Shown one piece after another: positions 1,898-29,078 of a stretch of DNA of 29,078 bases. Position 1 is the first letter of the stretch. Every line of letters starts with the position of its first letter. Origin of the DNA: a virus (taxonomy: Duplodnaviria > Caudoviricetes); IMG/VR virus record IMGVR_UViG_3300012971_000068, positions 1-29,078 of that record. One strand, given 5' to 3'. The notes below the pieces were generated by a model. It saw nothing but the letters and a program-made list of their open reading frames with translations. It was not told the origin of the DNA and ran no database searches. A program made the position numbers and the translations under genes.

Positions 1898-3572
1898 CGA
1901 GGGCGAAGACCGGGAACTTGCCGCAGCGCGTCTGATCTATGACGCGGTGACGGGGAAGAAACAGATCACGAAGTCGTCGGAACTGTACAAATTCATGAAC
2001 GCCTTGACGGGTGAAGTCGTCCCGTTCACCCCGGTCTGCTCTCATCACAAGAGCCCTTGGGATATGATCTGGGAGAGCTTCAAAGTTGACCTCCCGGAAT
2101 ATGCCAAGCTGCCTCAGACCGACATCATTGCGATTGGCCCTCGAGAGGGATTCAAAACCCTGTCGACAGCAAAGCTCATCGCAATGGAGGCCCTGCTCAA
2201 GCCGAAAGTCTCGATTGCGTCAATCGCGGCAATCATCAAACAGGCTTCGAGATGTTACAAATACGCAAGCCAGTATCTCTTCCATCCGCTCCTCACGGAC
2301 ATGAACATGGTCGTGAAGAACATCATGGAGGAGACGAGGCTGGCCAACAAGTCTCATTATGAGCAGCTTGTTGCGACGGTCTACAACGTCAACTCTCCGC
2401 ACCCGAACAAACTGAGAGCGGACGAAGTGGAGCTCATGAAGCCTGAAGTTGTTGAAGAGATGAAGAACGTCCCAAGCTCCTATGGGGGCTGGCGGGCGCA
2501 CACGCTGTACACGTCGACAAGAAAATACTATGACGGCCTGATGAGCGAGCTTGTCGCCCGTCAGCAGAAGAACGGCTACAGTTCCAAGCTCATCATCTGG
2601 TGCTACAAGGACGTGTCCGAGCCCTGCCCCGATGAGCGTTCTGGCGTCAATCCTCATACCTATGAGGTTGAGGACATCTTTCATCATGGAGAGAAGATCG
2701 TCGTTAATGCCTATGAGTACTGCGGAGACTGCCCGATCCTTCCGAGTTGTAAGGGTGACCTGAAGCGGGCGAAGGGCATGATCCCAATTGACGATGCGAT
2801 CAAGAAGTGGAACGAGCTTGACCGGGACACCTGGCTTGCGCAGAAAGAGTGCGTTGAGCCCCCGCGCACAAGCCTGTTCTACTATGAGTGGGACGAAAAA
2901 TTCAACGTTGGGGATGTCCCCTTTAACCCGGCCCATCCGGTCGAGATGTTCTGCGACTTTACGGGTGGCGGTGAAGATCCGAGTGTGTTCCAGTTCTGGC
3001 AGAAGTATGACGGGAACGACTACCTGATCATGGAACTGACGTACCGCCGACGTTCAACAGGAGATGTTGGCAGGGATGTTGAACGGATCTGCAAGGAACG
3101 CGGGATCCGCCCCTCGAGGATGATGGGTGACTCCTCTCAGATGCAGCAGATTCGGGATCTTGCAGCAACCTCCAACTTCTTCCGATCCCTGCGGCCTGTC
3201 CGGAAGATTGACCGCAAGGAAGGGCTCTCGATTTGCCGGCGTCGCATCAAGGACAACAACGGAGTCCGCCATACGTTTGTGGACTCGAAGTGTCATAATT
3301 TCAAGCAAGAAGTCCGGGAGCTGAAACGCCGTGCGTCAGATGCCGATGACCACAAGGACGGCAACGACCACTCGATGGACGCTTGGCGGTACTACTGCGT
3401 CGCAAACTACTATACGGTTGGAGAGCCCCGCATCCGTCTACTCCGGGGCGGAGATGACGGCGACTTCGACAACATCGAGGATGCGGTGACGGCACCGAAG
3501 CCTGCAAGAATTATCCGGGATAGCCGTGGAGTTCATGGAGCAATTGACGACTATCTGAGGGAGATGGACTAA
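1866..3572 (+). CDS. terL: Terminase large subunit
   Basis: Walker A-like GPREGFKT, Walker B LRADEVE, coupling motif YTST, and RNase H-like nuclease residues in FCDF...DP and DHSMDAWRY. Lies upstream of the portal. Start taken at ATG 1866 rather than the track's 1836. Confidence 0.93.
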   Translation: MGKKKQDLPPDEGEDRELAAARLIYDAVTGKKQITKSSELYKFMNALTGEVVPFTPVCSHHKSPWDMIWESFKVDLPEYAKLPQTDIIAIGPREGFKTLSTAKLIAMEALLKPKVSIASIAAIIKQASRCYKYASQYLFHPLLTDMNMVVKNIMEETRLANKSHYEQLVATVYNVNSPHPNKLRADEVELMKPEVVEEMKNVPSSYGGWRAHTLYTSTRKYYDGLMSELVARQQKNGYSSKLIIWCYKDVSEPCPDERSGVNPHTYEVEDIFHHGEKIVVNAYEYCGDCPILPSCKGDLKRAKGMIPIDDAIKKWNELDRDTWLAQKECVEPPRTSLFYYEWDEKFNVGDVPFNPAHPVEMFCDFTGGGEDPSVFQFWQKYDGNDYLIMELTYRRRSTGDVGRDVERICKERGIRPSRMMGDSSQMQQIRDLAATSNFFRSLRPVRKIDRKEGLSICRRRIKDNNGVRHTFVDSKCHNFKQEVRELKRRASDADDHKDGNDHSMDAWRYYCVANYYTVGEPRIRLLRGGDDGDFDNIEDAVTAPKPARIIRDSRGVHGAIDDYLREMD

Positions 3573-6073
3573 TGGGCATGCTCGACAAGATCAAGGGCTG
3601 GTTCGTGGAGCCTCCGAAGACAGGCGGCTCAATGATCCCACTCCCTCCGGATGAACCCGCCCCGAACAGTGGCGGGATGATTCAGAGGATCAAGAGAGGG
3701 ATTCAGAAAGCCCTCCAGGCAGACCCGGAAGATTATGAGCGGTACGATTACAACCAGGCAGACACGTATCGCTCCAACCGGGTCAATCCGAGTGCGGAGA
3801 TCCTTGACTTTCTTGCGTTGTACCAAGTCAACCCGCACGTCTATGCTTGCGTGAATGCGATTTCGACGGCGATTGCGTCCGTTGAATTCCAGATTATGAA
3901 GGGCGGTGTCAAGCAGGAAGCGACCCACGATGTCCACAAGATGATGATGAAGCCGAACCCGTACCAGGTCTGGTATGAGTTCCAGGAAATGCAGACCGCC
4001 TTCAGGGAACTCTGCGGCAACTCCTTCGCAGAGAAGGTGCGGGACGACAAGGGGAAGCTCATCGCCTTCTTCCCGCTCAGGCCTGACAAGATCCGAATCA
4101 TTCCGCATCCGAAGGTGAAGGTGGCGGGCTACATCTACTGCCCGCGTCCGGGAATTGAGATCTTGTACGGGAGAGACGAAATTGTCCACTCCAAATACTT
4201 CTCCTCGACAGACGAGTACTGGGGAGTCTCGCCCGCATACGCTGCTCAGAACTCCGTCATCCTCGATATCTACAGCACCGCCTACAACAAGAAGTTCTTC
4301 CAGTCAAGTGCCGTCCCTGAGGGTGTTCTGGAAACCGCTGGGACAATTTCTGACGCAACGTACCAGCGCCTGAGACAGGACTGGGCGAAGCGTCATCGCG
4401 GAGTTGACAACGCCTTTGAGCTGGCGATCCTCGAGGAGGGCCTAACCTACAAGCCGATCAGCTTCAATCATCGCGACATGCAGATGGTTGAACTGAAGAC
4501 GATGGCAGCTGAAGAGATCCTGGCCGCCTACAAGGTCCCGCCCGGGATTGTTGGCTTCCTCCGGGAACGCGGCAACGCCGGGACGCTCCGTGAGCAGAAG
4601 AAGATGTTCTGGATGGACAATATTCTTCCGAAGCTCAAGCGCGAGCAGCAGCTCATCAACGCGGAGATCATTCCGCAGGGCCAGGACCTTGAGCTCAGGT
4701 TCGTGACGGAGAACATTGCGTCTCTGATCGAGGATATCCAGATCTCAACGTCCGTTGCGATGCAGCTTGTGACGCACGGGATCATGACGATCAACGAAGT
4801 CCGGAAGAAGCTGTTCAATCTTGACGAGGCTGACTGGGGCAAAACGCCGTGGATCCCGGTCGGACTTGCTCAGTACGATTCTGGCGTCCATCCGGGCTCT
4901 CCGAATGCCCCGCATATCACGGGCATGCTTGATGAAGAGACGGGCGGGCGCGTGACGGCTCCTGATCCTCAGAACCCTGCGAAGCCTCAGCCGGGAGGTG
5001 GCGCGGGCGGGACGCCGAACCAGGGCCCGACAAGTGGGGCTCAGGCCCGCAATCAGTCGACGCCAATGGGTGGCTCGATGCCGAGTGCGAAGCGTTACCC
5101 TGGGCTTGACTTTGAGAAGCTGACCCGGAAGGATCCGGACTGGACAAATAAGCAGCAGGTTCGGGACTGGCAGAAGTGGAAGATCTGGAAGGGACTTGCG
5201 ACCCCGGACTATAAAGAGCTGCAGACCTTCTTCAAGGACTACTTCGAGAAGCAGATGGCCCGGGTGACGAAGGGCCTTCGCCCGAAGTACATGCTTGCTG
5301 CTGGCAAGAACAAGAAGGTTGAGAAGGGCCGTGCGCAGAAGCTCGCAGAGGAAGCCTGGACCGATCCGTTCAGGCTGGTCAAGGCGACCTACGATGATGA
5401 GATTGAGGAGATGCTTTTTGACATCACGGAGGAGGCGGGGGACCTCAGTGTCAAGATCCTGCCGAAGGCCGGGAAAATCGTCAAGAAGCATGGCAACGCA
5501 ACGCTCGGGACGATTGGCGTTGACGAGGATTTCCTGCTCGACAACGAGCGGGTTGTCGACTTCCTCAAGAAGCATGCGGGTGAGCAGATGGACGGAATCA
5601 CCAAGAAGACCCGTCAACTGATGGGCCGGGAACTCTCGAAGGCCGTCGAGAATGGCGAAGACTTTGATGAGATGATGGACCGTCTCAACAATGTCTTCAA
5701 GGGCGACCTTGCCGAGTGGAGAGCCCGAATGATTGCCCGGACGGAGACAGTGACCCTGACGCAGTTTGCAGCCCTCGAGGCGGCCCGTCAGTCCGGAGTT
5801 GTTGAGAAGAAGCGTTGGGTGTCAGAACTCCTCGACACGACTCGTGATGATCCTCAGGGCGAAGATCATCGCATCATGCACGATCAGACGGTTGCCCTTG
5901 ACGATGTGTTCCATGTTCCGGCCCGCAAGGGAGAAGTGAACCTGATGGATGGCCCTGGCGATCCTGAAGGTTCTCCGGAGAATCTCGTCAACTGCCTCTG
6001 TATCCTTGACTTCCCGGGAACCACGGAGGAACTTGAAGGGGCTGAAGGCGACTTGGAGCCTGAAGAGGAGTAA
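3572..6073 (+). CDS. Portal protein (HK97 type) fused to C-terminal Mu gpF/SPP1 gp7-like head morphogenesis domain
   Basis: Portal motifs VYACVNAISTAIASV, PNPYQ, GNSF, PLRPDKI, GVSP, ILEEGLTYKPI, AYKVPPGIVG, GIMTINEVR. After a Pro/Gly linker come RARMIARTET, KKRW, H..MH.Q and PGDP...NCLC, typical of MuF. Confidence 0.92.
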   Translation: MGMLDKIKGWFVEPPKTGGSMIPLPPDEPAPNSGGMIQRIKRGIQKALQADPEDYERYDYNQADTYRSNRVNPSAEILDFLALYQVNPHVYACVNAISTAIASVEFQIMKGGVKQEATHDVHKMMMKPNPYQVWYEFQEMQTAFRELCGNSFAEKVRDDKGKLIAFFPLRPDKIRIIPHPKVKVAGYIYCPRPGIEILYGRDEIVHSKYFSSTDEYWGVSPAYAAQNSVILDIYSTAYNKKFFQSSAVPEGVLETAGTISDATYQRLRQDWAKRHRGVDNAFELAILEEGLTYKPISFNHRDMQMVELKTMAAEEILAAYKVPPGIVGFLRERGNAGTLREQKKMFWMDNILPKLKREQQLINAEIIPQGQDLELRFVTENIASLIEDIQISTSVAMQLVTHGIMTINEVRKKLFNLDEADWGKTPWIPVGLAQYDSGVHPGSPNAPHITGMLDEETGGRVTAPDPQNPAKPQPGGGAGGTPNQGPTSGAQARNQSTPMGGSMPSAKRYPGLDFEKLTRKDPDWTNKQQVRDWQKWKIWKGLATPDYKELQTFFKDYFEKQMARVTKGLRPKYMLAAGKNKKVEKGRAQKLAEEAWTDPFRLVKATYDDEIEEMLFDITEEAGDLSVKILPKAGKIVKKHGNATLGTIGVDEDFLLDNERVVDFLKKHAGEQMDGITKKTRQLMGRELSKAVENGEDFDEMMDRLNNVFKGDLAEWRARMIARTETVTLTQFAALEAARQSGVVEKKRWVSELLDTTRDDPQGEDHRIMHDQTVALDDVFHVPARKGEVNLMDGPGDPEGSPENLVNCLCILDFPGTTEELEGAEGDLEPEEE

Positions 6074-10427: not shown

Positions 10428-10468
10428 GGGGAGCAGGGGTGAAATATCCCCTGCTCCCCTTCGGGGGA
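10428..10468 (+). promoter_or_regulatory. Post-capsid 12-bp GC hairpin overlapping an alternative cUUCGg hairpin
   Basis: GGGGAGCAGGGG-tgaaatat-CCCCTGCTCCCC (10428-10459) overlaps TCCCC-TTCG-GGGGA (10455-10468). There is no U-tract. Confidence 0.6.
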
Positions 10469-10471
10469 TTA

Positions 10472-11191
10472 ATGCCAGACCTGTGGGCTTGCCTGAACAT
10501 CTACCAGGAGGAGCAGCTGCTCCCCGAATGCATAGAGTCCATCCGCAAGTACAATCCTGAGGCCAAGATTGTAGCTGTGGATGGAGCCTATCAGTCCTGG
10601 GTTGACGAGAATAAAAAGCTCTGCGGACTTGAGCAGAGTTTTGGGCACTACCAAGTCACCGATGCGATGGTGAGGTTTACGAGTCCTCAGTCAACCGACA
10701 AGACTCTTGAAATCCTCCGGGACTTTAAGGTGGACGTGATCATCGAGTGCGAGAAAGATGAGCACGGGAATTACAAGCCCTGGGAACACGAGTACACCAA
10801 GCGGAGCCGGTACTTTGTTGGGAAGCCTGGGGACTACTACCTGGTCATTGATGGTGACGAGCGGCCCGAGAAAAGACTTGACTGGGAGAAGCTGACGGCC
10901 CCCTGCTACAACGTCATCCTCAAGAGGGACGAAGAGCATTACCGTCCCTACCCGATCATGCGTGTTCATAAACACGTTGATGGGATGAAGTATTTTGGGG
11001 CCCATCATGTTCTCTGGTACGGGGACGTGATGTGGCGCAAAGAGATGTGTGAGGATCTTGACTACGCTTTGTTCCATCGGTTCACGTATCGGGCGGTGCG
11101 GGATCCCCTGCGCCATCTTGCGAAGACGGCCTACTATCGCAATCTGACAAGCAGCGAAGAGGGGCCCTTCCGGAGGCAGCATGGGTTTTGA
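10472..11191 (+). CDS. GT-A fold (GT2-like) glycosyltransferase
   Basis: ACLNIYQEEQLLPECIESI, IVAVDG, STDKTLEIL, and DxD-type YLVIDGDE. ATG 10472 follows the GGGGGA RBS; the track's start at 10439 lies within the hairpin. Confidence 0.82.
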   Translation: MPDLWACLNIYQEEQLLPECIESIRKYNPEAKIVAVDGAYQSWVDENKKLCGLEQSFGHYQVTDAMVRFTSPQSTDKTLEILRDFKVDVIIECEKDEHGNYKPWEHEYTKRSRYFVGKPGDYYLVIDGDERPEKRLDWEKLTAPCYNVILKRDEEHYRPYPIMRVHKHVDGMKYFGAHHVLWYGDVMWRKEMCEDLDYALFHRFTYRAVRDPLRHLAKTAYYRNLTSSEEGPFRRQHGF

Positions 11192-14203: not shown

Positions 14204-14677
14204 ATGGAAGCCAATCCTCTGATCACCCCGGAGGCAAAGACCCTCATCACCGGGGAAGCCCCAGTCTCTGAGGAAAAGATCACCCTGAAAAGCGAGGATG
14301 GGGCTGAGTATGAGCCCTGCCCCCTGAGTCTTCGGGACATGATCGACTTCGAAGAGGAGATGGGGATCAGCCTCCTGTTTGCCGTCAAGAATGTCCTATC
14401 GGCAAAGCACCTCGTTGAAGTTGCCTACCTCTCCGCGAGGCGAAGCGGACAGACCAAGAAGCAGATCCTGAATGGCGAGTACCGCATCTCACGAGATGCA
14501 TTCCTGGAGTCCTTTGGCTTTGACTTCTTTGCGAAGGGTGGCTCCGAGTACACGGTCCAAGTCCTCAAGCTCTGCGGAGTGTTGAAGGATAAGGAAAACC
14601 CTCCGAAGCAGGTCAACCCGACAAACGAGCAGGGCAAGTCGGCTGGCACGAAAGAAACGCCCGCAAGCGGCCAGTAG
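14204..14677 (+). CDS. Tail assembly chaperone (gpG-like)
   Basis: Lies between tube and tape measure. AAGGAG RBS. Contains slippery heptamer at ...ENP. Confidence 0.85.
   Translation: MEANPLITPEAKTLITGEAPVSEEKITLKSEDGAEYEPCPLSLRDMIDFEEEMGISLLFAVKNVLSAKHLVEVAYLSARRSGQTKKQILNGEYRISRDAFLESFGFDFFAKGGSEYTVQVLKLCGVLKDKENPPKQVNPTNEQGKSAGTKETPASGQ
14596..14602 (+). other. Programmed -1 frameshift site A AAC CCT
   Basis: X XXY YYZ heptamer in the correct phase (GAA AAC CCT). The -1 frame stays open to TAA 14896-14898. Confidence 0.8.
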
Positions 14678-14898
14678 ACTGGGTTGACCTGTATAGGTCC
14701 TTTCATGAGATTGGACTTGTACATAGCCCGGAGGAGTTTGGTGAGCTAACCCTTCCTCAGATTCTCATGGTAACAAAGTACGAACACGACAAGGTTGAAC
14801 TTGAGCTCCTGAACGAAAAGCTAGCAAAAGAGATGGCCGAGAGAAACAAGGAACCTGGCAACCCGCCGATCAAGCTCCAGCTTGATGTGAGGGAGTAA
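14602..14898 (+). CDS. gpT-like frameshifted extension of tail chaperone (not in ORF track)
   Basis: The -1 frame reads SEAGQPDKR...DWVDLYRSFHEIGLVHSPEEFGELTLPQILMV...DVRE*, with the P-x-EF-x-x-LT-x-x-Q pattern of gpT-like regions. Its stop overlaps the TMP ATG (TAATG). Confidence 0.78.
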   Translation, partial: SEAGQPDKRAGQVGWHERNARKRPVDWVDLYRSFHEIGLVHSPEEFGELTLPQILMVTKYEHDKVELELLNEKLAKEMAERNKEPGNPPIKLQLDVRE

Positions 14899-17555
14899 TG
14901 TCAGACGACGCAATTTCAGTCCTCGTAACCCTGAAGGATGAATTCACCGAGTCCGCAAATCGGGTCAGCGCTGCCGTTGACCGGATGAAGGAGTCCCTCG
15001 GGGAAGTTGTCGACCGGAGCAAAGAGGTTGCGAAGACCTTCGGGAAGGAACTCCAGAGCACCTTCGACACGACTGCCAAATACGCGGGCTACGTTGGGAC
15101 GGCCCTTGTCGGTGCCTTCGGGCTGATGGCCCGCGAAGTCCTTCACGAATCCCAAGAACTCGTTCATCTCAACGAGATCACCGGCATCTCCATCGAGCGC
15201 CTTCAGGAACTTGGACTTGCTGCTCAGACTCACGGCTCGAGTCTTGAGGGGATGGCCCAGGGCTTGCGTCGCCTGTCAATGATGGCAACCCAGGCCGCCG
15301 AAGGATCGGCAAGGGCCGAAAAAGCCTTCCAGAAGCTCGGCGTCAACATCTACGACTCAAACGGCAACCTGAAGGAGACGAACGAACTCTTCAACGATGT
15401 TGCGAATGGCTTCTCGAGAGTCGAGGGTCATACCGAGAAAGCTGCACTTGCGATGGAACTGTTCGGGCGGGCGGGGCAGAATCTCCTCCCGGTCCTCGAG
15501 CAGGGAACGGCGGGCTTCGACAAGATCGGCAAAGTTGGCCGGGAACTCGGCATCATCATGAGCAAGGAGTCCGTCGAAGCCTCCAATGCCCTCAAGAATG
15601 AGTTTGCTCTCCTTACTCAGGTTGGAAAGAGTCTTGTCTCTGAGGCTCTCGAGAAAATCGAAGAGCATATGCCCGACATCATTGACTTCTTTGTGACGAT
15701 GGCAAAGGCTGTCAATGGTGGCAAGATGGAGTTCAAGAACCTCCTGACGGATCTGGCCGCAGGAGCGGGCGTCATCTCTGGGCTTGCGACGAACCTCAAG
15801 GAAGCCTGGAAGATGATGAAGGGCGACATGTCCGGAATGGACAACGTCAAGACAATCGGAGAACTCTGGAAGAAGGCCCAGGAGGAGACTGCTGCGGGTC
15901 ATGCGGAGAACCAGAAGCAATATAAAGAGGAACAGCTACTCCTTGATGAGCTTGGTGGGAAGCTGAAGAAGGCCGTTGCTGTCATCCGGGGAATGGGGGA
16001 CGAAGCAAAGAAGACGGGCGAAAACATCCAGCAGATGCTTGACCCGGCGTTGAAGCTCCTCGACAGCCAAGACGCCGCAATGGACAAGTACCAGAAGACC
16101 GGGGACGCTGCCGAATACTACAAAGAGAACGTCAAGCTTGCGAAGGAAGCCCTTGACGCCTATGCCCGGAGTCTTCCGCCTTGGATCGTCCTGATGAACG
16201 ACGGGACGGAGGCGGGCGAAAAGAAGAGGAAGATGCTTGCAGAACTTCGCGGGGACTATGAAACCGCGAAGGAGGCCGAGGCCAACTACACCAAAGAACA
16301 GCAGGACGCAAAGAAGGAGCTTGAAGAATTCCAGCACATGCTGGTCGAGGGCCGGAACCTCGCAGAGAAGTATGGGCTTGCCCTTAATGACCTTGACCTG
16401 GTGAACCTTGCCAATGAGGCTCAGGCAACCGGCAAGTCCATGCAGGAAATGTTCCGGGCGATGGAGGAAGCGAAGAATTCAACCTTCCTTGGCGGACTCG
16501 ACAGTGCCCTTCAGGAACTCCAGAAAAAGCTGGTTGACATGAAGGGGCTCTTCATGAGCCTCTTCAATTCAATCGAAGGCGGCCTGTCAAACGCCTTTGA
16601 GAAAATCCTGGAGTCTGGCGGCAAGTGGAAGGATGCCATGAAGGGCCTGTTCGATGACATCAAGAAGGCATTCTTCAAGATGATCTCGGACATGCTCGCA
16701 AAAGAGATCATGGCAAACCTCCTTGGAGTCGGTGGAGGAGGGGGCGGGCTCGGAAGTTTTGGAGGAGGCGGGGGAGGCGGGGGCGGTGGAGGAGGGCTGC
16801 TCGGCGCTGCGGGCGGGCTTGCCGGTGGCGCTGCGAGCCTCTTTGGAGCGGGTGGTGCGAGCGGAGCAAAGAATATCTCCGACATGAGCACCGAAGAACT
16901 CGCAAAGGCAGGAATGCTGAATTCTTCAGGCGAAGCTGCCTCAGGCTTCAGCCTTGGAAGTGCCCTTGGCGCTGTTGGAATGGGCGTTGCCGGGGCCGGG
17001 ATGGCAGTCGGCGGATACAAGTCTGGCAATATCGGTCAGACGGTTGCGGGCGGTGCTATTGCGGGCGCTGCGATTGGGTCTGTGATCCCTGGCCTTGGAA
17101 CGGTTGCGGGCGCCGTGATTGGCGCGGTTGTCGGGGCGGTTGCCGGCTTTATTGGCAATCGTTCCAAGAAAAGACGCGAAGCCGCAAAGAAACGGGCCGA
17201 ATACGCTGAAGCCAAGGCCATCGTTGAGCAGCAGATCGAGAATCAATATGGCGGCGGGCTTGCCCTCGAGGAGCAGACCGATCAGATCAGCAAGCTCCTG
17301 AGCCACGGGATCAGCAACAAGGAAATTGATCAGCTTGGCGGACGCCGGGCAATCATCAATAGCTACAAGGCGGGACATCCGGTTGGACCCGGAGCGGGTG
17401 GCGGGACGACTCCCGGGAATACCGTCAACGTTGGCGCTCCGAACATCAGCGTGACGGTTGGAAGCATCGGGAATAACTATGAGGCAGCCCAGCTTGCTCA
17501 GGACCTTGGCTATCATCTTGTGAACACGATTCACGCGGCGGGGGCTGGTTCATAA
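14898..17555 (+). CDS. Tape measure protein
   Basis: 885 aa, helical and Ala-rich, with TGISIERLQEL, AFQKLGV and AMELFGRAG..LLPVL motifs and a Gly-rich hydrophobic C-terminal part. Follows the chaperone. Confidence 0.93.
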   Translation: MSDDAISVLVTLKDEFTESANRVSAAVDRMKESLGEVVDRSKEVAKTFGKELQSTFDTTAKYAGYVGTALVGAFGLMAREVLHESQELVHLNEITGISIERLQELGLAAQTHGSSLEGMAQGLRRLSMMATQAAEGSARAEKAFQKLGVNIYDSNGNLKETNELFNDVANGFSRVEGHTEKAALAMELFGRAGQNLLPVLEQGTAGFDKIGKVGRELGIIMSKESVEASNALKNEFALLTQVGKSLVSEALEKIEEHMPDIIDFFVTMAKAVNGGKMEFKNLLTDLAAGAGVISGLATNLKEAWKMMKGDMSGMDNVKTIGELWKKAQEETAAGHAENQKQYKEEQLLLDELGGKLKKAVAVIRGMGDEAKKTGENIQQMLDPALKLLDSQDAAMDKYQKTGDAAEYYKENVKLAKEALDAYARSLPPWIVLMNDGTEAGEKKRKMLAELRGDYETAKEAEANYTKEQQDAKKELEEFQHMLVEGRNLAEKYGLALNDLDLVNLANEAQATGKSMQEMFRAMEEAKNSTFLGGLDSALQELQKKLVDMKGLFMSLFNSIEGGLSNAFEKILESGGKWKDAMKGLFDDIKKAFFKMISDMLAKEIMANLLGVGGGGGGLGSFGGGGGGGGGGGGLLGAAGGLAGGAASLFGAGGASGAKNISDMSTEELAKAGMLNSSGEAASGFSLGSALGAVGMGVAGAGMAVGGYKSGNIGQTVAGGAIAGAAIGSVIPGLGTVAGAVIGAVVGAVAGFIGNRSKKRREAAKKRAEYAEAKAIVEQQIENQYGGGLALEEQTDQISKLLSHGISNKEIDQLGGRRAIINSYKAGHPVGPGAGGGTTPGNTVNVGAPNISVTVGSIGNNYEAAQLAQDLGYHLVNTIHAAGAGS

Positions 17556-18352
17556 TGCCGATAACTCACGCAGTCAGCTTCAACGGCTATGACCTGACCG
17601 ATATCATCGAGGCGCATAGCGATCAGGCGAACACGCGTGTCATTATGCAATCCGTCCCGAAGAGACACGGAGGGCTTCTGACGGAATCGCCCGTGCTCGA
17701 TGTTCGCAAGGTTCAGCTTCAGGGGGTTTATTTCGGGACGGATCAGCAATCGACTCGCGACAAGATCCGCGCAGTTGAAGGGGCGCTTGGCTACCAGAAG
17801 GGCAAGTTCAAGCTGTTCTCAGACAGGTACTACCTTGCCTGGAAGTCTGGCTTCAGCCATTCCTATGTCCCGAATACAAACCTCTGTGTCGTCGTCATGA
17901 CGATGGAATTCTCCTGCGACGATCCGTTTGAGTACGACGAAGGCGGGCCCTTCAGCCACAACGAAACCCTGACGACCGGGGACACGGTCACGGACATCAC
18001 CAACGGGTTCTACAAGAGGCAGTTCCATATCAACTATCCGGGGACTCAGAATGCCTACCTGAAGACAACCGTCACGGCAGACCAACCGGCAGGAGCGGTC
18101 AAGGAAGTTATTGTCCGTAACCTGACAACGGGTCGTGCCTGGACCTACGCCAGGACAGGAAGTGCGGGCGTGATCAATGCGGGCAAGTCCCTGATCGTTG
18201 ACGCCAACTATTTCACCGTCTTCAACGACGGGAAGAAGGACATCAAGGCTTGGAGCGGCTACTTCAACTGGCTCATTAACGGCGACAACCTCATGGAGAT
18301 CGAAGGGACACCTGCGTCTTACTTGTTTAACTGGGATCAGAGATACGCATGA
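17555..18352 (+). CDS. Distal tail protein (Dit-like)
   Basis: FNGYDL start, VPKRHG, R..QLQG, L..DRYY, FSCDDPF, N.G, L..GDN and terminal W..RY pattern. Directly after TMP. Confidence 0.85.
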   Translation: MPITHAVSFNGYDLTDIIEAHSDQANTRVIMQSVPKRHGGLLTESPVLDVRKVQLQGVYFGTDQQSTRDKIRAVEGALGYQKGKFKLFSDRYYLAWKSGFSHSYVPNTNLCVVVMTMEFSCDDPFEYDEGGPFSHNETLTTGDTVTDITNGFYKRQFHINYPGTQNAYLKTTVTADQPAGAVKEVIVRNLTTGRAWTYARTGSAGVINAGKSLIVDANYFTVFNDGKKDIKAWSGYFNWLINGDNLMEIEGTPASYLFNWDQRYA

Positions 18353-19104
18353 GCACTGCCATCTTCGACCCTGCTGTCTTGGATTTTGAACTCCCGAAAG
18401 GGCTCATCGCAAACCGTCCGAATCTGTCGGACTGGTTCAGCGACTGCCAGCTTGTCATGTTCGACCGGAAGACCGGGAGAATCAGCCAGCACGACTTCCT
18501 CGAGCTTGCCGACATCCTTGACGATGAGCTCTGCTACGCGAACAAGGCTTGGCTGGATGATTCCTGTAATCACCTGTGGAGGCTTCAGTGCAACTGGGCC
18601 GATAAGAATTCCAAAGACAAGAATGGGCGTGGAACGTTCGCGGTTCCTTCGGCAGGGCTCCCAATCGACATCGTCACCAAGAACCAGCTCAACCTTAAAT
18701 ACCTGAGCTTGTTCACTCCGGAAGAGAAGATCCGGAACCAAGATGAGATGTACCGGGACGGGAAATCTCTTCCGGAGTATTACAAGTTCCATGATCCCTA
18801 TGACGGATCGAGGCCGGTCATTGCGATTGGGACAACGGTGGTGAAGGCTCTCGAGTCCTTCACGAACATCTCTGGAAGCTGGCCCATCGAAGGCAACGAG
18901 AGCATCTCGGATCTCCTAATCACTCCGGGCCATACGTTCCGGAACGTCAAGGGGATCCTAACGAACTTCCATTACCCAAAAGAGCCGTTGTCAGCGCTTG
19001 TCGCAGCTTTCACGGGAGTCGAGCAATTCAAGGAAATCTACAAGTACGCGGTTGATTATGAACTTCGCTTTGTGGATTTTGGGGACCGTCTTCTGGTAAT
19101 CTGA
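18349..19104 (+). CDS. queA: Shortened QueA-like protein (SAM:tRNA ribosyltransferase-isomerase homologue)
   Basis: DFELPKGLIANRP, QLVMFDR..G.I.. ..F..L.D.L, AVPSAGL, VIAIGTTVVKALES, DLLITPG..F..V.GILTNFHYP, LVAAFTG and Y..A....LRF..FGD.LL match QueA motifs in order. Only 251 aa. Symbol denotes homology, not proven function. Confidence 0.85.
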   Translation: MSTAIFDPAVLDFELPKGLIANRPNLSDWFSDCQLVMFDRKTGRISQHDFLELADILDDELCYANKAWLDDSCNHLWRLQCNWADKNSKDKNGRGTFAVPSAGLPIDIVTKNQLNLKYLSLFTPEEKIRNQDEMYRDGKSLPEYYKFHDPYDGSRPVIAIGTTVVKALESFTNISGSWPIEGNESISDLLITPGHTFRNVKGILTNFHYPKEPLSALVAAFTGVEQFKEIYKYAVDYELRFVDFGDRLLVI

Positions 19105-19105
19105 A

Positions 19106-22100
19106 ATGGCTTGCTCCGGATCCGTCCCGACCATTACGACAGGCGCCGCAGTCTACGACTTTGTAGGCTGCACGCTGACCTACGTCGCAACGATTGACAT
19201 TCCCTGCGGCTCGAGCGGCTACAAGCTCTATGCCTATCTTGACCCGGGGACTTCTCCGACCTTCGCGCATCAGGTTGACAGCGTAGCTCTCCCCTCCGGC
19301 CCGGCAACGTACAGCTACAACAAAGTTGTCACGATGAACTGCCAGGCTCCGGGGAACTACGCCTGGAGCATCCGGATTGAATGTGATGGAGTTGGAACCT
19401 ACGGGGACGCGCACGGAACGTTCAACCATACGGAGCGCAACCCCGAGATCACCGCGTTCCAAGCGACCATCGACAGTGATGCGTGCAGCTACGCGGCGAG
19501 TGCGGCCTACCATGCTCTGTGCGGCGTCCCGGATGCGACCTGGACTTGCGAAATCTACCTGAAGAAGGGCGTCATCTCTGGGCTCTTGCCAGCCGACATG
19601 ATTGCCGGGCCGGTCGCAATCCCTTGCGGAATCGGGAATGCGAACATCTCGGCAAACGGCCCGATTGCCGGCAGAGGAACATTCTACTTCACGTTTGTCC
19701 TGAAAAAGAACGGGGTCGTTTTCTCCACCGTCAACCAGCCGGTTGAATGTTACGGCTGCGACGACTACGTTGACATCTTCGCGCCCGGGAATGCCGTCCC
19801 TTATGATGACATCCAAGAAACAATCTGGCTGGTGAAGCCCGTCAAGAGTGCTTCAGGCTACACCTACGAAGATCAGCGCCTTCTGTCAGCTTCCTATCGG
19901 ATGATCGACTGGTTCTACTATCGGAATGGTGGATGCGGCCCGTTCAATCTTGTTCTTGGGGAATCGTTCTCTGATCTGGAGCTTGCGCTTCAGAACCAGT
20001 GGGAAATCCATGTCCGCATTCAACTCCCGACTGAAACAAGCTTCACGACTTGGTATCGGGGAATCATCCGCTCTGGAGAACGGAGAACAAAAGGAACGGA
20101 CACCATCACGGAAGTCCGGGGCCAGGGCTACAACTCCCTGCTTGCGGAAGTGTATGTCGGAAGACGCTATCCGAAGGGCCTGAGAGTTGACCAGATTGTT
20201 GCAGACATCATCACCAACTACGTCAAGCCGAATACCAAGATCAAGCAGCCCCGAGACATTGACCCGACGCTTGGGACAGGGACCATCGGGACGGGCATCG
20301 ACCAGACCACGTATGTGACCCGAGGCCCGATTCACTTTGAATGCTCGGCTCTGAAGGCAATCAAGTTCCTCTCGGAGCTTGAAGGTGGCATGGAATTTGG
20401 CGTTGCTGCAAATAATGCCTTCTTCTTCAGGGCCAAGAACACCGACAATGCCATCAGTTCCTTGTTTGCCGGAATTGACGTCACGAGCGTTGTCGACGCT
20501 GGCAAGGAAGTCCAGAAGATCAACCAAGTCCGGGTTGAAGGGAAGGGATTCGGAAAGCGGGAGTTCAATGCTGTCATTGGTGACCCGACCGACATTACCC
20601 TGTATGGCCTCTTTGAGCGCCAGATCGAAGTCCCCTGGATTGAGCAGCAGGATGATGCGGTTCGCTGGTCAACAAACATCATTGCCCTGAAGCGGGATGC
20701 GTCTCCCTGGAAGACCTTGAGCTGGGACAACGTCAATACCCGGCTCGAGTCGGCCCAGCCCCTCCTTGGGATGCAGCAGCTTCGGTTTTACTCAGATCCG
20801 GGGAACTCTTCGACAAAATTCAACGACTACGACATCAACAAGATCCACTATTACAAGGGGCTGGTCCCGGGTGCCATGAAGCCGGTCCAGGAGATGCGGC
20901 GACCGATTGACTTCCAGACGGGGGACAACCCTCAGCTGAGAGCCGTGATCACGACCGGCTACCATCACCATGATCTTGTTGAGGAGCTTGAAGAAAAAGT
21001 CTTCGATCAGATCGGAGCAATCAAGGGCAAGCTCCAGCAGTTCCGGAATCCCTTTGTTGATCCGACGCTCCCGCTCCTTCAAGATGTCTCGCTGAACGCG
21101 GGTGAGCTTCAGGGCATGCCGAATGTCCCGGGCTCAACTGACGTGACGGCAGGGCCAATCCTCCTCCACTACTTTGACGGAACGCTCTGGAGAGATCTGA
21201 TCTCCATGAAGTCCGGTGAGCAGCTGCCGGCTTCGGGAGTTTTCGTTGGAGAAGAGTTCTTCAAATGGTCTGACGGAAGCCACACGACAGGCGTCAAATA
21301 CTATTGGACCGGATCTGCCTGGTCCAATATGTCGGGCGGGGGCGGTGGAGGCGGTGGGGACATCCGAAGCGACGGAACCGTGCCCTTTGCGGCAGACGAA
21401 TCCATGGGTGGGCACAAGCTCACCGGGGTTGCGGCACCGGTCTCAAGTACAGACGCGGCAAACAAACAATTCGTTCTTGACACCAAGGACTCAATTGCCT
21501 GGAAGGACCCTGTCCGAGTTGCGACAACGGCTGCTCTGACGCTTTCATCGGTCATCAGTGGTACCGTGATTGACGGATTTGCTGTTGTAACTGGGGATCG
21601 TGTTCTCTTCAAGGATCAGGCGGCCCAGGCAGAGAACGGGATTTACATCATCCAGACTTCGAGTACCCCTGTCCGGTCGACAGACGCAGACACAACCTCC
21701 GAGATGAACTGCGCCGCAACTGCGGTAAGACTCGGGACCGTGAACAAGAGCCGCGTCTATCTTCAGACAACAGACAGCCCGACAATCGGTTCAAGCGCAA
21801 TCGTTTGGACTCGAATTGACGGGGCTGGCGGAGGTGGAGGCGGGGATATCAAGTCTGACGGAACGATTCCGTTTGCTGCCAACGAATCCATGGGTGGGTT
21901 CAAGCTCACGAACGTTGGCGCCCCAACTTCGGGCACGGATGCAGCAAATAGACAGTACGTTCTTGACACCAAAGATTCGATTGCTTGGAAGGATCCTGTC
22001 AGAGCAGCTTCCACGGCAGCACTGACGCTCTCGTCTGTTCAGAACGGAACGGTTGTCGACGGAGTTACGCTTGCGACTGGAGATCGGTTCCTCTTCAAGG

Positions 22101-22495
22101 ATCAGGCCGCTCAATCTGAAAACGGCATCTACATTATCCAGGCCTCAAGCACTCCTGTCCGGGCGACCGATGCGGACACGACGGCAGAACTGAACTGCGC
22201 AGCTACTGCTGTCAGACTTGGAACGGTCAACAAGAGCCGGGTTTATCTCCAAACAACCGATAGCCCGACTGTTGGTGCGAGTTCGATTGTCTGGGCCCGA
22301 ATTGATGGCAGCGGCGGGGATATCCGCTCAGATGGAACGGTTGCCTTTGCGGCGAACGAGTCGATGGGGAACAACAACCTCATCAATGTCAAGGACCCGA
22401 TTAATCCTCAAGACGCGGCAACAAAAGCATATGTTGACTCGACGGTCGGATATGACCCTCTACACGATCCGGTTTTCTGGATGCTGATGGGGTGA
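19106..22495 (+). CDS. Tail tip/hub protein fused to fibre-type repeats, with Cys-rich N-terminal extension
   Basis: Central hub-like region (W.Y.RNGGCG.F.L, WYRGII, EVRGQGY..LL, SALKAIKFLSE..G.MEFGV, INQVRV). The C-terminus has repeats of the fibre motif WKDPVRVATTA.LTLS...IDG....GDRVLFKDQ....ENGIY. Confidence 0.8.
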   Translation: MACSGSVPTITTGAAVYDFVGCTLTYVATIDIPCGSSGYKLYAYLDPGTSPTFAHQVDSVALPSGPATYSYNKVVTMNCQAPGNYAWSIRIECDGVGTYGDAHGTFNHTERNPEITAFQATIDSDACSYAASAAYHALCGVPDATWTCEIYLKKGVISGLLPADMIAGPVAIPCGIGNANISANGPIAGRGTFYFTFVLKKNGVVFSTVNQPVECYGCDDYVDIFAPGNAVPYDDIQETIWLVKPVKSASGYTYEDQRLLSASYRMIDWFYYRNGGCGPFNLVLGESFSDLELALQNQWEIHVRIQLPTETSFTTWYRGIIRSGERRTKGTDTITEVRGQGYNSLLAEVYVGRRYPKGLRVDQIVADIITNYVKPNTKIKQPRDIDPTLGTGTIGTGIDQTTYVTRGPIHFECSALKAIKFLSELEGGMEFGVAANNAFFFRAKNTDNAISSLFAGIDVTSVVDAGKEVQKINQVRVEGKGFGKREFNAVIGDPTDITLYGLFERQIEVPWIEQQDDAVRWSTNIIALKRDASPWKTLSWDNVNTRLESAQPLLGMQQLRFYSDPGNSSTKFNDYDINKIHYYKGLVPGAMKPVQEMRRPIDFQTGDNPQLRAVITTGYHHHDLVEELEEKVFDQIGAIKGKLQQFRNPFVDPTLPLLQDVSLNAGELQGMPNVPGSTDVTAGPILLHYFDGTLWRDLISMKSGEQLPASGVFVGEEFFKWSDGSHTTGVKYYWTGSAWSNMSGGGGGGGGDIRSDGTVPFAADESMGGHKLTGVAAPVSSTDAANKQFVLDTKDSIAWKDPVRVATTAALTLSSVISGTVIDGFAVVTGDRVLFKDQAAQAENGIYIIQTSSTPVRSTDADTTSEMNCAATAVRLGTVNKSRVYLQTTDSPTIGSSAIVWTRIDGAGGGGGGDIKSDGTIPFAANESMGGFKLTNVGAPTSGTDAANRQYVLDTKDSIAWKDPVRAASTAALTLSSVQNGTVVDGVTLATGDRFLFKDQAAQSENGIYIIQASSTPVRATDADTTAELNCAATAVRLGTVNKSRVYLQTTDSPTVGASSIVWARIDGSGGDIRSDGTVAFAANESMGNNNLINVKDPINPQDAATKAYVDSTVGYDPLHDPVFWMLMG
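21359..22445 (+). repeat. Intragenic tandem repeats: two full ~160-aa units plus a partial third
   Basis: Units start with DI(R/K)SDGT at 21359, 21845 and 22319 (periods 486 and 474 nt), each preceded by a Gly linker. Confidence 0.92.
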
Positions 22496-26513: not shown

Positions 26514-27455
26514 ATGGACAAGAACTCGGTTATCTTGGTCACCGGTGGCCGTGGGTTTCTTGGAACGAATCTTGTCGAGAGACTTCTTGCCGAAGGCTTC
26601 AAGACGGTCTGCCCGTTGAGTCGCCGTAACGGATTCAACATGCTTGACCTACCGCAGTTGCGGGCTGTCTTCAGAGCCGTCAAGCCGGACATTGTCTTTC
26701 ATCTTGCCGCAACCGTTGGCGGGATCGGAGCAAATCGCAAGAGCCCGGGAACCTTCTGGGTTGAGAACACGTTGCTCGGGCTGAACCTCCTCGAGGCCGT
26801 CCGGGAATTCAAGCCTGAGCGGACGGTCATGGTCGGGACGACGTGCGCCTACCCGAAGTATTGCACCGTCCCCTTCAAAGAGTCCGACATCTGGAACGGA
26901 TTCCCGGAAGAAACCAACGCGCCTTACGGAGTTGCAAAGAAGTCAATCATGCTTGGGGCGAAATCCTACGTTCAGCAATTCGGCCTTGACATCGTGAATC
27001 CGATCCTGACGAACCTCTATGGCCCGAAGGATCATTACTCCAAAGAAAATGCTCATGTCGTCCCGGACATGATCCGCAAGTTCCACGACGCAAAGCAAGT
27101 CCGGGAGCGCATCACCCTCTGGGGAGACGGAACCCCGACAAGAGATTTCCTGTACGTTGAGGACGCTTGCGATGCCCTGATAAAAATAGCGAGTCTGCCG
27201 GTTGGCCCTGAGCCGATCAACTTTGGTTCCGGTACGGAAGTCTCCATGAGAGAGCTTGCAACGCTTGTTTCTCAGACCGTTGGCTACGATGGAGACCTGA
27301 GCTGGGATACGACAAAGCCAAATGGCCAACCGCGACGGCTCTTGGATATCACCCGCGCAAAGGATCTTGGATGGGTCCCGAAGACAACCCTTCAACATGG
27401 ATTGATGGTGACGTATGAAGATTTTCTTGGCCGCTCTGCTGGCGACCGTGTGTAG
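26514..27455 (+). CDS. fcl: GDP-L-fucose synthase (GDP-4-keto-6-deoxymannose epimerase/reductase family)
   Basis: VTGGRGFLG, HLAATVGGIGAN, TCAYPK, PEETNAPYGVAKK (YxxxK), NLYGP.D, WGDGTPTRDFLYVED, NFGSG.EVS and KPNGQPRR.LD. Confidence 0.93.
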   Translation: MDKNSVILVTGGRGFLGTNLVERLLAEGFKTVCPLSRRNGFNMLDLPQLRAVFRAVKPDIVFHLAATVGGIGANRKSPGTFWVENTLLGLNLLEAVREFKPERTVMVGTTCAYPKYCTVPFKESDIWNGFPEETNAPYGVAKKSIMLGAKSYVQQFGLDIVNPILTNLYGPKDHYSKENAHVVPDMIRKFHDAKQVRERITLWGDGTPTRDFLYVEDACDALIKIASLPVGPEPINFGSGTEVSMRELATLVSQTVGYDGDLSWDTTKPNGQPRRLLDITRAKDLGWVPKTTLQHGLMVTYEDFLGRSAGDRV

Positions 27456-28423: not shown

Positions 28424-28458
28424 CTTGGCTATGATGAACGTGATTGCTAGGAGAAACA

Positions 28459-29078
28459 ATGGATCCAATCCTCTCTCTTGTTACAGGGACGCTAAACCGT
28501 CCTGACTCTTTTGCGCGGCTCGCAAAAAGCATCATCGAGTGGACAAAAGTCCCTTGGGAGCTTGTCGTCTCGGATGCGTCTGACGAGCCGTACAAAGAGA
28601 AATACCCCGACAATGTCATCTTCCTGCCGGAGCGTCCCCGACTTGGCTGCGTGAAGGGCTACAACCGGGCCTTCAAGCATTGTCGCGGGAAGTGGGTCAT
28701 CTGGCTCAACGATGACGCTGAAGTCATGCCCGGGTATGACACCGCGGCCATCGACTTCATGGAGAAGAACCCCGACTGCGGCCTTGGCGCGTTGTACTAC
28801 GCCAACCATACGATGCCGTATTTCGTCCAGACCTACCACGAGATGCTCTATGCGAACTTCGGGATCATCTCGAGGGAGCTTGGAGAAAAGGTTGGGTGGA
28901 TGGACGAAGTTGTCCGCATGTACGGGAACGACAACTCGATTACCTTCCGGGTCCTCCTCGAGGGGCTAGGAATTGGCAGCATCCAAGGTGCTCGAATCTG
29001 GCATCATCCGATCCAAGACAAGCAGCGGATCGAAAATGAAAGCCGACACGCCGAGGATGCCGCAGCCTTGATGGGCAA
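28459..29078 (+). CDS. GT2-family glycosyltransferase (3'-truncated by window; not in ORF track)
   Basis: AGGAG RBS, ATG 28459: MDPILSLVTGTLNRPDSFARLAKSI...WELVVSDAS...LGCVKGYNRAFKHCRGKWVIWLNDDAEV...GWMDE...YGND...IWHH. Open to the window end. Confidence 0.88.
   Translation, partial: MDPILSLVTGTLNRPDSFARLAKSIIEWTKVPWELVVSDASDEPYKEKYPDNVIFLPERPRLGCVKGYNRAFKHCRGKWVIWLNDDAEVMPGYDTAAIDFMEKNPDCGLGALYYANHTMPYFVQTYHEMLYANFGIISRELGEKVGWMDEVVRMYGNDNSITFRVLLEGLGIGSIQGARIWHHPIQDKQRIENESRHAEDAAALMG

Follow-up and report, generated by a model that had tools for sequence, protein, structure and literature searches.

Bacterial QueA, the S-adenosylmethionine (SAM):tRNA ribosyltransferase-isomerase (PF02547, TIGR00113, NF001140; structures 1yy3, 1vky and 1wdi), carries out an unusual reaction in which the ribose of SAM is transferred and isomerised, and the available part of PMC10491745 describes the mode of tRNA and SAM binding as still unclear. 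In the proposal given in the same part, adenine is freed from SAM, the substrate amine adds to a vinyl sulfonium and an epoxide forms (PMC10491745). The beta-barrel inserted in the enzyme is thought unlikely to touch SAM, and its role is called unclear in the accessible text of PMC1282579. Another queuosine-pathway gene set is reused by phages in the 7-deazaguanine DNA clusters (FolE, QueD, QueE, QueC, DpdA), but these work without QueA, and viruses are stated to carry no QueAGH in the section of PMC8265664 that was available. Mycobacteriophage capsid glycosylation (PMC11256854) and MepM-dependent tail methylation, which is required for adsorption (PMC13445384), are, as far as the available parts of these sources go, precedents for a covalent change of virion proteins such as the one proposed below, although they involve another enzyme fold and another chemistry than a QueA-like protein, and MepM is host-encoded. 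Here we describe a QueA-like gene in the IMG/VR virus record IMGVR_UViG_3300012971_000068, analysed over a stretch of 29,078 nucleotides (the window), which is a tailed-phage fragment with terminase, portal, protease, capsid, connector, tube, tape measure, Dit, hub and distal genes. The gene encodes an apparently undescribed conserved variant of QueA; a literature search whose scope excluded supplements (phage gene lists) and most subscription papers found no account of a phage or barrel-less QueA. The gene and the site of its deletion are the following:

18349..19104, + strand: barrel-less QueA homologue P0001, 251 amino acids (aa), from Pfam, NCBIfam and PDB matches, an AlphaFold model and fold searches
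18541..18600, + strand: deletion junction N65-A84 at the canonical site of the beta-barrel and PPY motif, from two alignments and span counts

The sequence match of P0001 to QueA is far beyond chance: Pfam PF02547 was matched with E 1.4e-29 and 103.7 bits, above the gathering threshold of 25, and a sequence search of PDB returned three solved QueA chains (E 2e-17 to 1e-15). The AlphaFold model, computed from an input alignment of 44 short relatives, had a mean predicted local distance difference test score (pLDDT) of 91.1 and a predicted template modelling score (pTM) of 0.90. All 4 chains found with this model by Foldseek at E <= 0.001 were QueA entries, and VIA aligned 209 residues with 1wdi (Z 23.3, root-mean-square deviation (rmsd) 2.8 A), the runner-up chain reaching Z 3.2; no match at E <= 0.001 was obtained in a viral predicted-structure library. 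The alignment and the model agree that the beta-barrel is absent and the alpha/beta fold of QueA kept, as the sequence-only reading had held when it described a QueA without its second domain, and the motifs lie where it had placed them (D12-P24 at 18382-18420, A98-L104 at 18640-18660, V157-S170 at 18817-18858 and T205-P210 at 18961-18978). Its short gap between YANKA and LQCNWA was also borne out, although the exact count is 11 residues and not about 12. A short linker stands in for the barrel and the PPY motif in alignments with canonical QueA. Among 295 sequences, collected by two word-based searches, one exhaustive profile search and locus translations, the N65-P100 span has a bimodal length distribution, with 56 sequences at 20-39 residues, 234 at 100 or more, as with an inserted beta-barrel, and 5 elsewhere; in P0001 it is 35 residues. 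P0001 failed the QueA equivalog tests of TIGR00113 (94.3 bits, cut-off 267.45) and NF001140 (99.8 bits, cut-off 324), in which the canonical control P0116 scored 412 and 478, respectively. P0001 is therefore a member of the PF02547 superfamily without QueA equivalog status, and two phage forms that retain the barrel likewise fail the test.

After removal of one fragment and two duplicates, a quick tree of the shared domain was computed from 54 short forms, 19 full-length forms without PPY and GxGTF and a random sample of 35 of the 215 canonical proteins. It gathered 49 short forms in one group, with a support of 98 in the Shimodaira-Hasegawa-like approximate likelihood ratio test (SH-aLRT), and placed 4 other short forms and 17 divergent full-length forms near this group; 1 short form and 2 full-length forms fell within canonical QueA. 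In a careful tree of 50 rows, 38 divergent rows were split from 12 canonical ones at 100/100, and the main short clade was supported at 100/99. One or two losses of the barrel gave indistinguishable topologies (p-AU 0.44, approximately unbiased test). The second, small barrel-less group (P0084, P0159, P0164 and P0274) possibly reflects an independent loss; a viral locus was sought for the context of its four proteins and none was found. Genomic context was available for 2 of the 17 divergent proteins that retain the barrel. Elsewhere, 81 of 82 QueA-like open reading frames (ORFs) of a cell-genome scan, which took in the best 80 of 521 matches from 36 of 64 parts plus two viral loci, carried the PP[YH] motif, the remaining one being 363 aa long. 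Among 50,697 cultured-phage records 19 matched weakly (E 7e-24 or weaker), the two annotated ones being labelled queA, and a protein-atlas search with the barrel-less P0054 returned PF02547 clusters only.

The 49 short forms were compared with 208 canonical proteins, position by position in P0001 numbering. The residues invariant in canonical QueA are kept: N65, P100, G103, E143, G161, T205 and H208 are present in 100% of the short forms, T162, E169 and D246 in 97% and N206 in 95%, and the P[ST]AG and GTT motifs are retained. P0001 itself shares with bacterial QueA the core N, P[ST]AG, E, GTT, E, TNFH and GD. In contrast, Arg at position 166 is replaced by Lys in 49 of 49 short forms, and GTTxxR and S[FY]GD, found in 201 and 206 of the 208 canonical proteins, occur in none of the 49. 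By regular expression, PPY was found in 1, YQT in 6 and GxGTF in 6 of the short forms. None of these five motifs is present in P0001, in line with the earlier remark that LPPYI is lost and HVGxGTF replaced. Because the presence of PPY was the criterion for the canonical set, and the absence of PPY and GxGTF that for the divergent full-length set, the counts of those two motifs are circular in these sets; the counts of acidic changes are free of this circularity. Glu or Asp stands at position 212 in 96% and at position 243 in 88% of the short forms, and Arg247 in 98%, against 0% of the canonical proteins in each case; P0001 has Lys166, Glu212, Asp243 and Arg247. The short forms have lost 10 of 15 conserved basic positions wholly or in part, some of these in gappy columns. 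Of the 17 barrel-retaining forms, 82% already have an acidic residue at position 212 and 76% at position 243, so that, as far as the sequences tell, the residue changes probably came before the loss of the barrel, and the deletion itself was probably not the key event.

The neighbours of the gene belong to the tail tip:

17555..18352, + strand: distal tail protein Dit, short form of 265 aa (PHROG 33, E 2.9e-16)
19106..22495, + strand: baseplate hub (Tal/gp27-like) tail-tip protein of 1129 aa with C-terminal fibre-like repeats, from fold matches
19106..19780, + strand: two Cys-rich domains of immunoglobulin (Ig)/fibronectin type III-like fold at the hub N-terminus, from the model and beta-sandwich matches (Z about 9-11)

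The start of the QueA-like gene overlaps the Dit stop codon (ATGA), and its own stop codon is followed by 1 base and then by the hub ATG at 19106, exactly as had been read from the sequence; the same reading had named both neighbours, and Dit is upheld by PHROG 33 and the downstream hub by its fold. The hub model (pLDDT 55.3 overall, 70-89 over residues 1-220) matched phage baseplate hubs, best at Z 13.3 with rmsd 4.0 over 184 aligned residues. PHROG 196 was found in 3 of 4 orthologous hub segments and not in that of the window. Three hub N-terminal segments tested against PHROG gave no match, and that of the window gave none in the protein atlas; the hub segment had no match among the 50,697 cultured-phage records, in which the capsid protein matches a cultured phage at about 25% identity. 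The Cys-rich domains are present in 1-4 copies among five full-length hubs (window, L002, L003, L004 and L009); they show a C-x(8-11)-PCG pattern, with CxxC in several copies. In two more distant phage types, Dit is long (484 and 740 aa) and directly precedes a hub without Cys-rich domains, and no QueA match was found in their incomplete records; the Cys-rich hub domains and the QueA-like gene thus occur together and are both missing from these two types.

This position is conserved. Eight distinct related contigs were obtained from viral and metagenome scans, and in each the gene lies beside Dit and/or the hub: Dit is directly upstream in 7 of the 7 contigs having upstream DNA, and a hub start directly downstream in 7 of the 7 having downstream DNA, the hub being visible for its first 43-84 residues only in 3 of the latter. 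Start and stop codons overlap or abut with those of Dit and the hub at every locus with a visible junction. As a proxy for shared contigs, 23 of 37 Dit homologues agree with a short form in the length of their longest contig; 2 more were linked by DNA and 12 were unassigned. The pairwise identities of the QueA-like protein and Dit correlate (rho 0.81, 22 pairs), with none of 5000 permutations as high, which fits joint inheritance of the two genes and does not imply that their products interact. Of nine pairs compared, three were saturated; the ratio of nonsynonymous to synonymous substitution rates (dN/dS) lay between 0.08 and 0.14 in five close pairs and was 0.24 in the remaining one, a level similar to that of Dit (0.11). 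With this saturation and a high dS, the ratios are rough. The search for short viral homologues, their synteny and dN/dS that had been suggested for this gene thus returned a 49-member clade in a fixed place under purifying selection. The guanine plus cytosine (GC) content of the gene, 0.53 overall and 0.69 at third codon positions (GC3), resembles that of Dit (0.55 and 0.73), and a scan for promoters and terminators gave counts no higher than chance level.

Genes of the queuosine pathway were searched in the window and in related genomes. None of 30 scanned ORFs of the window matched the folE, queC/D/E/F or tgt families, which confirms an absence already noticed. No TGT, QueD or FolE match was found in G001-G005 and no QueC match in G002-G006 (0 of 5 each), in scans whose positive controls matched in 10-14 of 14 genomes. 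G003 is linear, 96.8 kb long and rated 73% complete, G004 has terminal repeats, 93.7 kb and a rating of 80%, G005 (44 kb) alone is rated complete, and G006 is an incomplete outgroup record of 89 kb. A tRNA scan of 20 stretches gave none with a GUN anticodon. A deazaguanine role in tRNA or DNA is unlikely, since the larger related genomes have no TGT, QueC, QueD or FolE match.

A Pfam scan covered 138 proteins of G004 and 129 from G003, G002 and L020, leaving out most structural and some short genes. In both G003 and G004 it found an FdtA-like isomerase, a DegT aminotransferase, several glycosyltransferases and an epimerase. FdtA and DegT together make a 3-amino sugar. These genes form a cluster after the tail genes (L004:18164-20662, L051:2-8595 and L053:400-10154) with glycosyltransferases of family 2 (GT2), GT1-like and GT47-like type, FdtA, DegT and the epimerase, and a UDP-glucose dehydrogenase-like gene lies nearby. 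The outgroup record G006 has neither a DegT nor a QueA match. Sugar genes of the window are the following:

10439..11191, + strand: weak GT2-like glycosyltransferase (PF00535, E 0.005, below cut-off)
26514..27455, + strand: NAD-dependent nucleotide-sugar epimerase (PF01370, E 1.3e-55)
28444..29078, + strand: second GT2 glycosyltransferase, cut by the window end (PF00535, E 9.8e-14)

The first of them directly follows the major capsid gene, likewise in L001-L004, and is a candidate capsid glycosyltransferase; the likeness to the known virion modifications lies in such glycosyltransferases in and near the structural genes of QueA-like phages. The two barrel-retaining relatives with context encode QueA proteins of 322 aa (L005:9491-10459, in G005) and 331 aa (L020:9476-10471). 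In these related phages, which are built differently, the gene closes the tail module and is flanked by distal tail genes and putative lysis genes. G005 also has a Methyltransf_24 gene, and L020 has GT6 and MptE-like genes.

Several other features were seen in these genomes. An overlapping second frame after the tail assembly chaperone (14590-14892 of the window), kept in L001-L004, fits the usual programmed frameshift, and the portal is fused to a MuF-like head morphogenesis domain (3572-6073), likewise in G002-G004. G003 carries a Thg1 tRNA-His guanylyltransferase and an RNA ligase, and G002 a spermidine synthase-like gene in the head region (L053:17838-18500, L054:14659-15672 and L059:3224-4141). 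Both large genomes have a fusion of DNA polymerase III alpha with a uracil-DNA-glycosylase-family domain (L052:7654-11310 and L054:2172-5798). In G003 only, an extra Cys-containing ORF of 283 aa without Pfam match (L003:8401-9252), possibly a homing endonuclease, lies between the tape measure and Dit.

We tentatively favour, at a little below an even chance, an enzyme that acts late, uses SAM and modifies not tRNA but the proteins of the tail tip or the glycans on them. This choice is based on the kept polar core, on the failure to find partner genes or substrates of the tRNA pathway, on the constant position of the gene among tail genes and on the several sugar enzymes that these phages encode. 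The sequence-only reading had proposed a repurposed QueA derivative; this stands, as the deletion is clean, the core is kept, and sequence and place are conserved under purifying selection, whereas preQ1 in DNA, one of the acceptors it offered, is not upheld by the related records, two of 94-97 kb included, in which TGT, QueC, QueD and FolE matches are absent. The QueA-like protein would be co-translated with Dit and the hub, its retained core would still bind SAM and free adenine, which would yield the electrophilic intermediate of the mechanism proposed for QueA, and with the new acidic and lost basic residues a nucleophile of the virion may have taken the place of the preQ1 amine of tRNA as the acceptor. 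The weakest steps are the acceptor, which could be the Ig-like domains of the hub or an amino sugar on virion glycans, and the role of the product, a cyclopentane group on this acceptor that might tune adsorption or shield the tip. That the phage QueA lineage moves a SAM-derived epoxy-cyclopentanediol group to tail-tip amines or thiols, as an undescribed virion modification controlling host attachment, is possible but doubtful.

Several points weigh against such a tail-tip enzyme. Canonical QueA takes tRNA before SAM, according to the available part of PMC10491745, there is no QueA structure with bound substrate, and the kept residues would be called catalytic on account of their invariance. 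Loss of the barrel is no proof of lost RNA binding, because the role ascribed to the barrel in the accessible text is unclear (PMC1282579), and the mean net charge of the shared domain barely differs (-2.3 vs -1.6). At Phe30, Gln34 and the YA motif, P0001 differs from the consensus of its family, and the late-operon place may reflect timing alone. Lys is invariant nowhere in 12 aligned hub repeats, and neither a conserved acceptor Lys nor a conserved N-terminal amine was found on the hub; two Cys positions are near-invariant, and one hub begins Met-Pro-Cys. The link to DegT comes from two related genomes and one incomplete outgroup. In G005, which has a barrel-retaining relative, no DegT match was found and no ORF matches the Dit or hub of the window, so that no single substrate gene tracks the whole lineage.

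Alternatively, the protein could be a non-catalytic or ligand-binding part of the tail tip, seated on Dit or on the Ig-like domains of the hub, whose old pocket binds a host-surface ligand and which replaces the accessory domains inserted in the Dit of relatives. This is unlikely, although it accounts for the position and the pairing with Ig-like domains equally well as an enzyme does: the coupled start and stop codons, the Dit homologues paired with short forms by proxy or by DNA, the identities that track Dit, and the outgroup types with a long Dit, a hub without Cys-rich domains and no QueA all suit it. Against it stand the polar pocket invariants kept across about 30% identity, beyond the usual need of a scaffold, the barrel-retaining relatives, whose phages build their tails differently and carry the gene next to fibre-like and putative lysis genes, and the model, which remained unmatched among predicted viral structures.

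A role in counter-defence or host takeover appears quite improbable; SAM would be broken down unproductively against SAM-dependent restriction or BREX-type defence, or the tRNA anticodon loop shielded from nucleases. Phage SAM lyases with such a counter-defence role are known. The proposed chemistry of QueA splits SAM to adenine and methionine, as described in the available part of PMC10491745, and if uncoupled would destroy SAM; the presence of Thg1 and RNA ligase in G003 also points this way. However, a fixed place in the late tail module is hardly what an early defence role would call for, methyltransferase-like proteins of G003 and G004 would need SAM, the conserved basic residues are lost, and no Thg1 or RNA ligase match was found among the 138 scanned proteins of G004.

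That the protein is a minimal but ordinary QueA, which makes epoxyqueuosine on host preQ1-tRNA and supports late translation, is very unlikely: its matches are confined to QueA families and structures and its core is kept, but its 94 bits are far from the TIGR00113 cut-off of 267, GTTxxR and S[FY]GD are lost throughout the short forms, and neither the other pathway genes nor substrate tRNAs were found in the related records and stretches. Still less probable is the hypermodification of preQ1 or another amine-bearing base in phage DNA; deazaguanines do occur in the DNA of other phages, according to the part of PMC8265664 available, but no TGT-family, QueC, QueD or FolE match was found in related records, where a divergent DpdA might be missed, and the gene lies in the tail module, far from replication genes. 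A functionless, decaying host gene or singleton moron, to which the loss of one domain and several canonical motifs might point, has a negligible probability and is contradicted by the supported 49-member clade, dN/dS of about 0.1, fixed synteny and neighbour-like GC and GC3.

The family is easily misread, as several members are named canonical QueA in their source databases and might be taken for auxiliary metabolic genes. Canonical, barrel-retaining divergent and barrel-less forms make up a natural series in which the role of the barrel and a tRNA-free chemistry become testable. If the modification of the tail tip is true, it would represent a new virion modification and provide a small SAM-dependent labelling enzyme.
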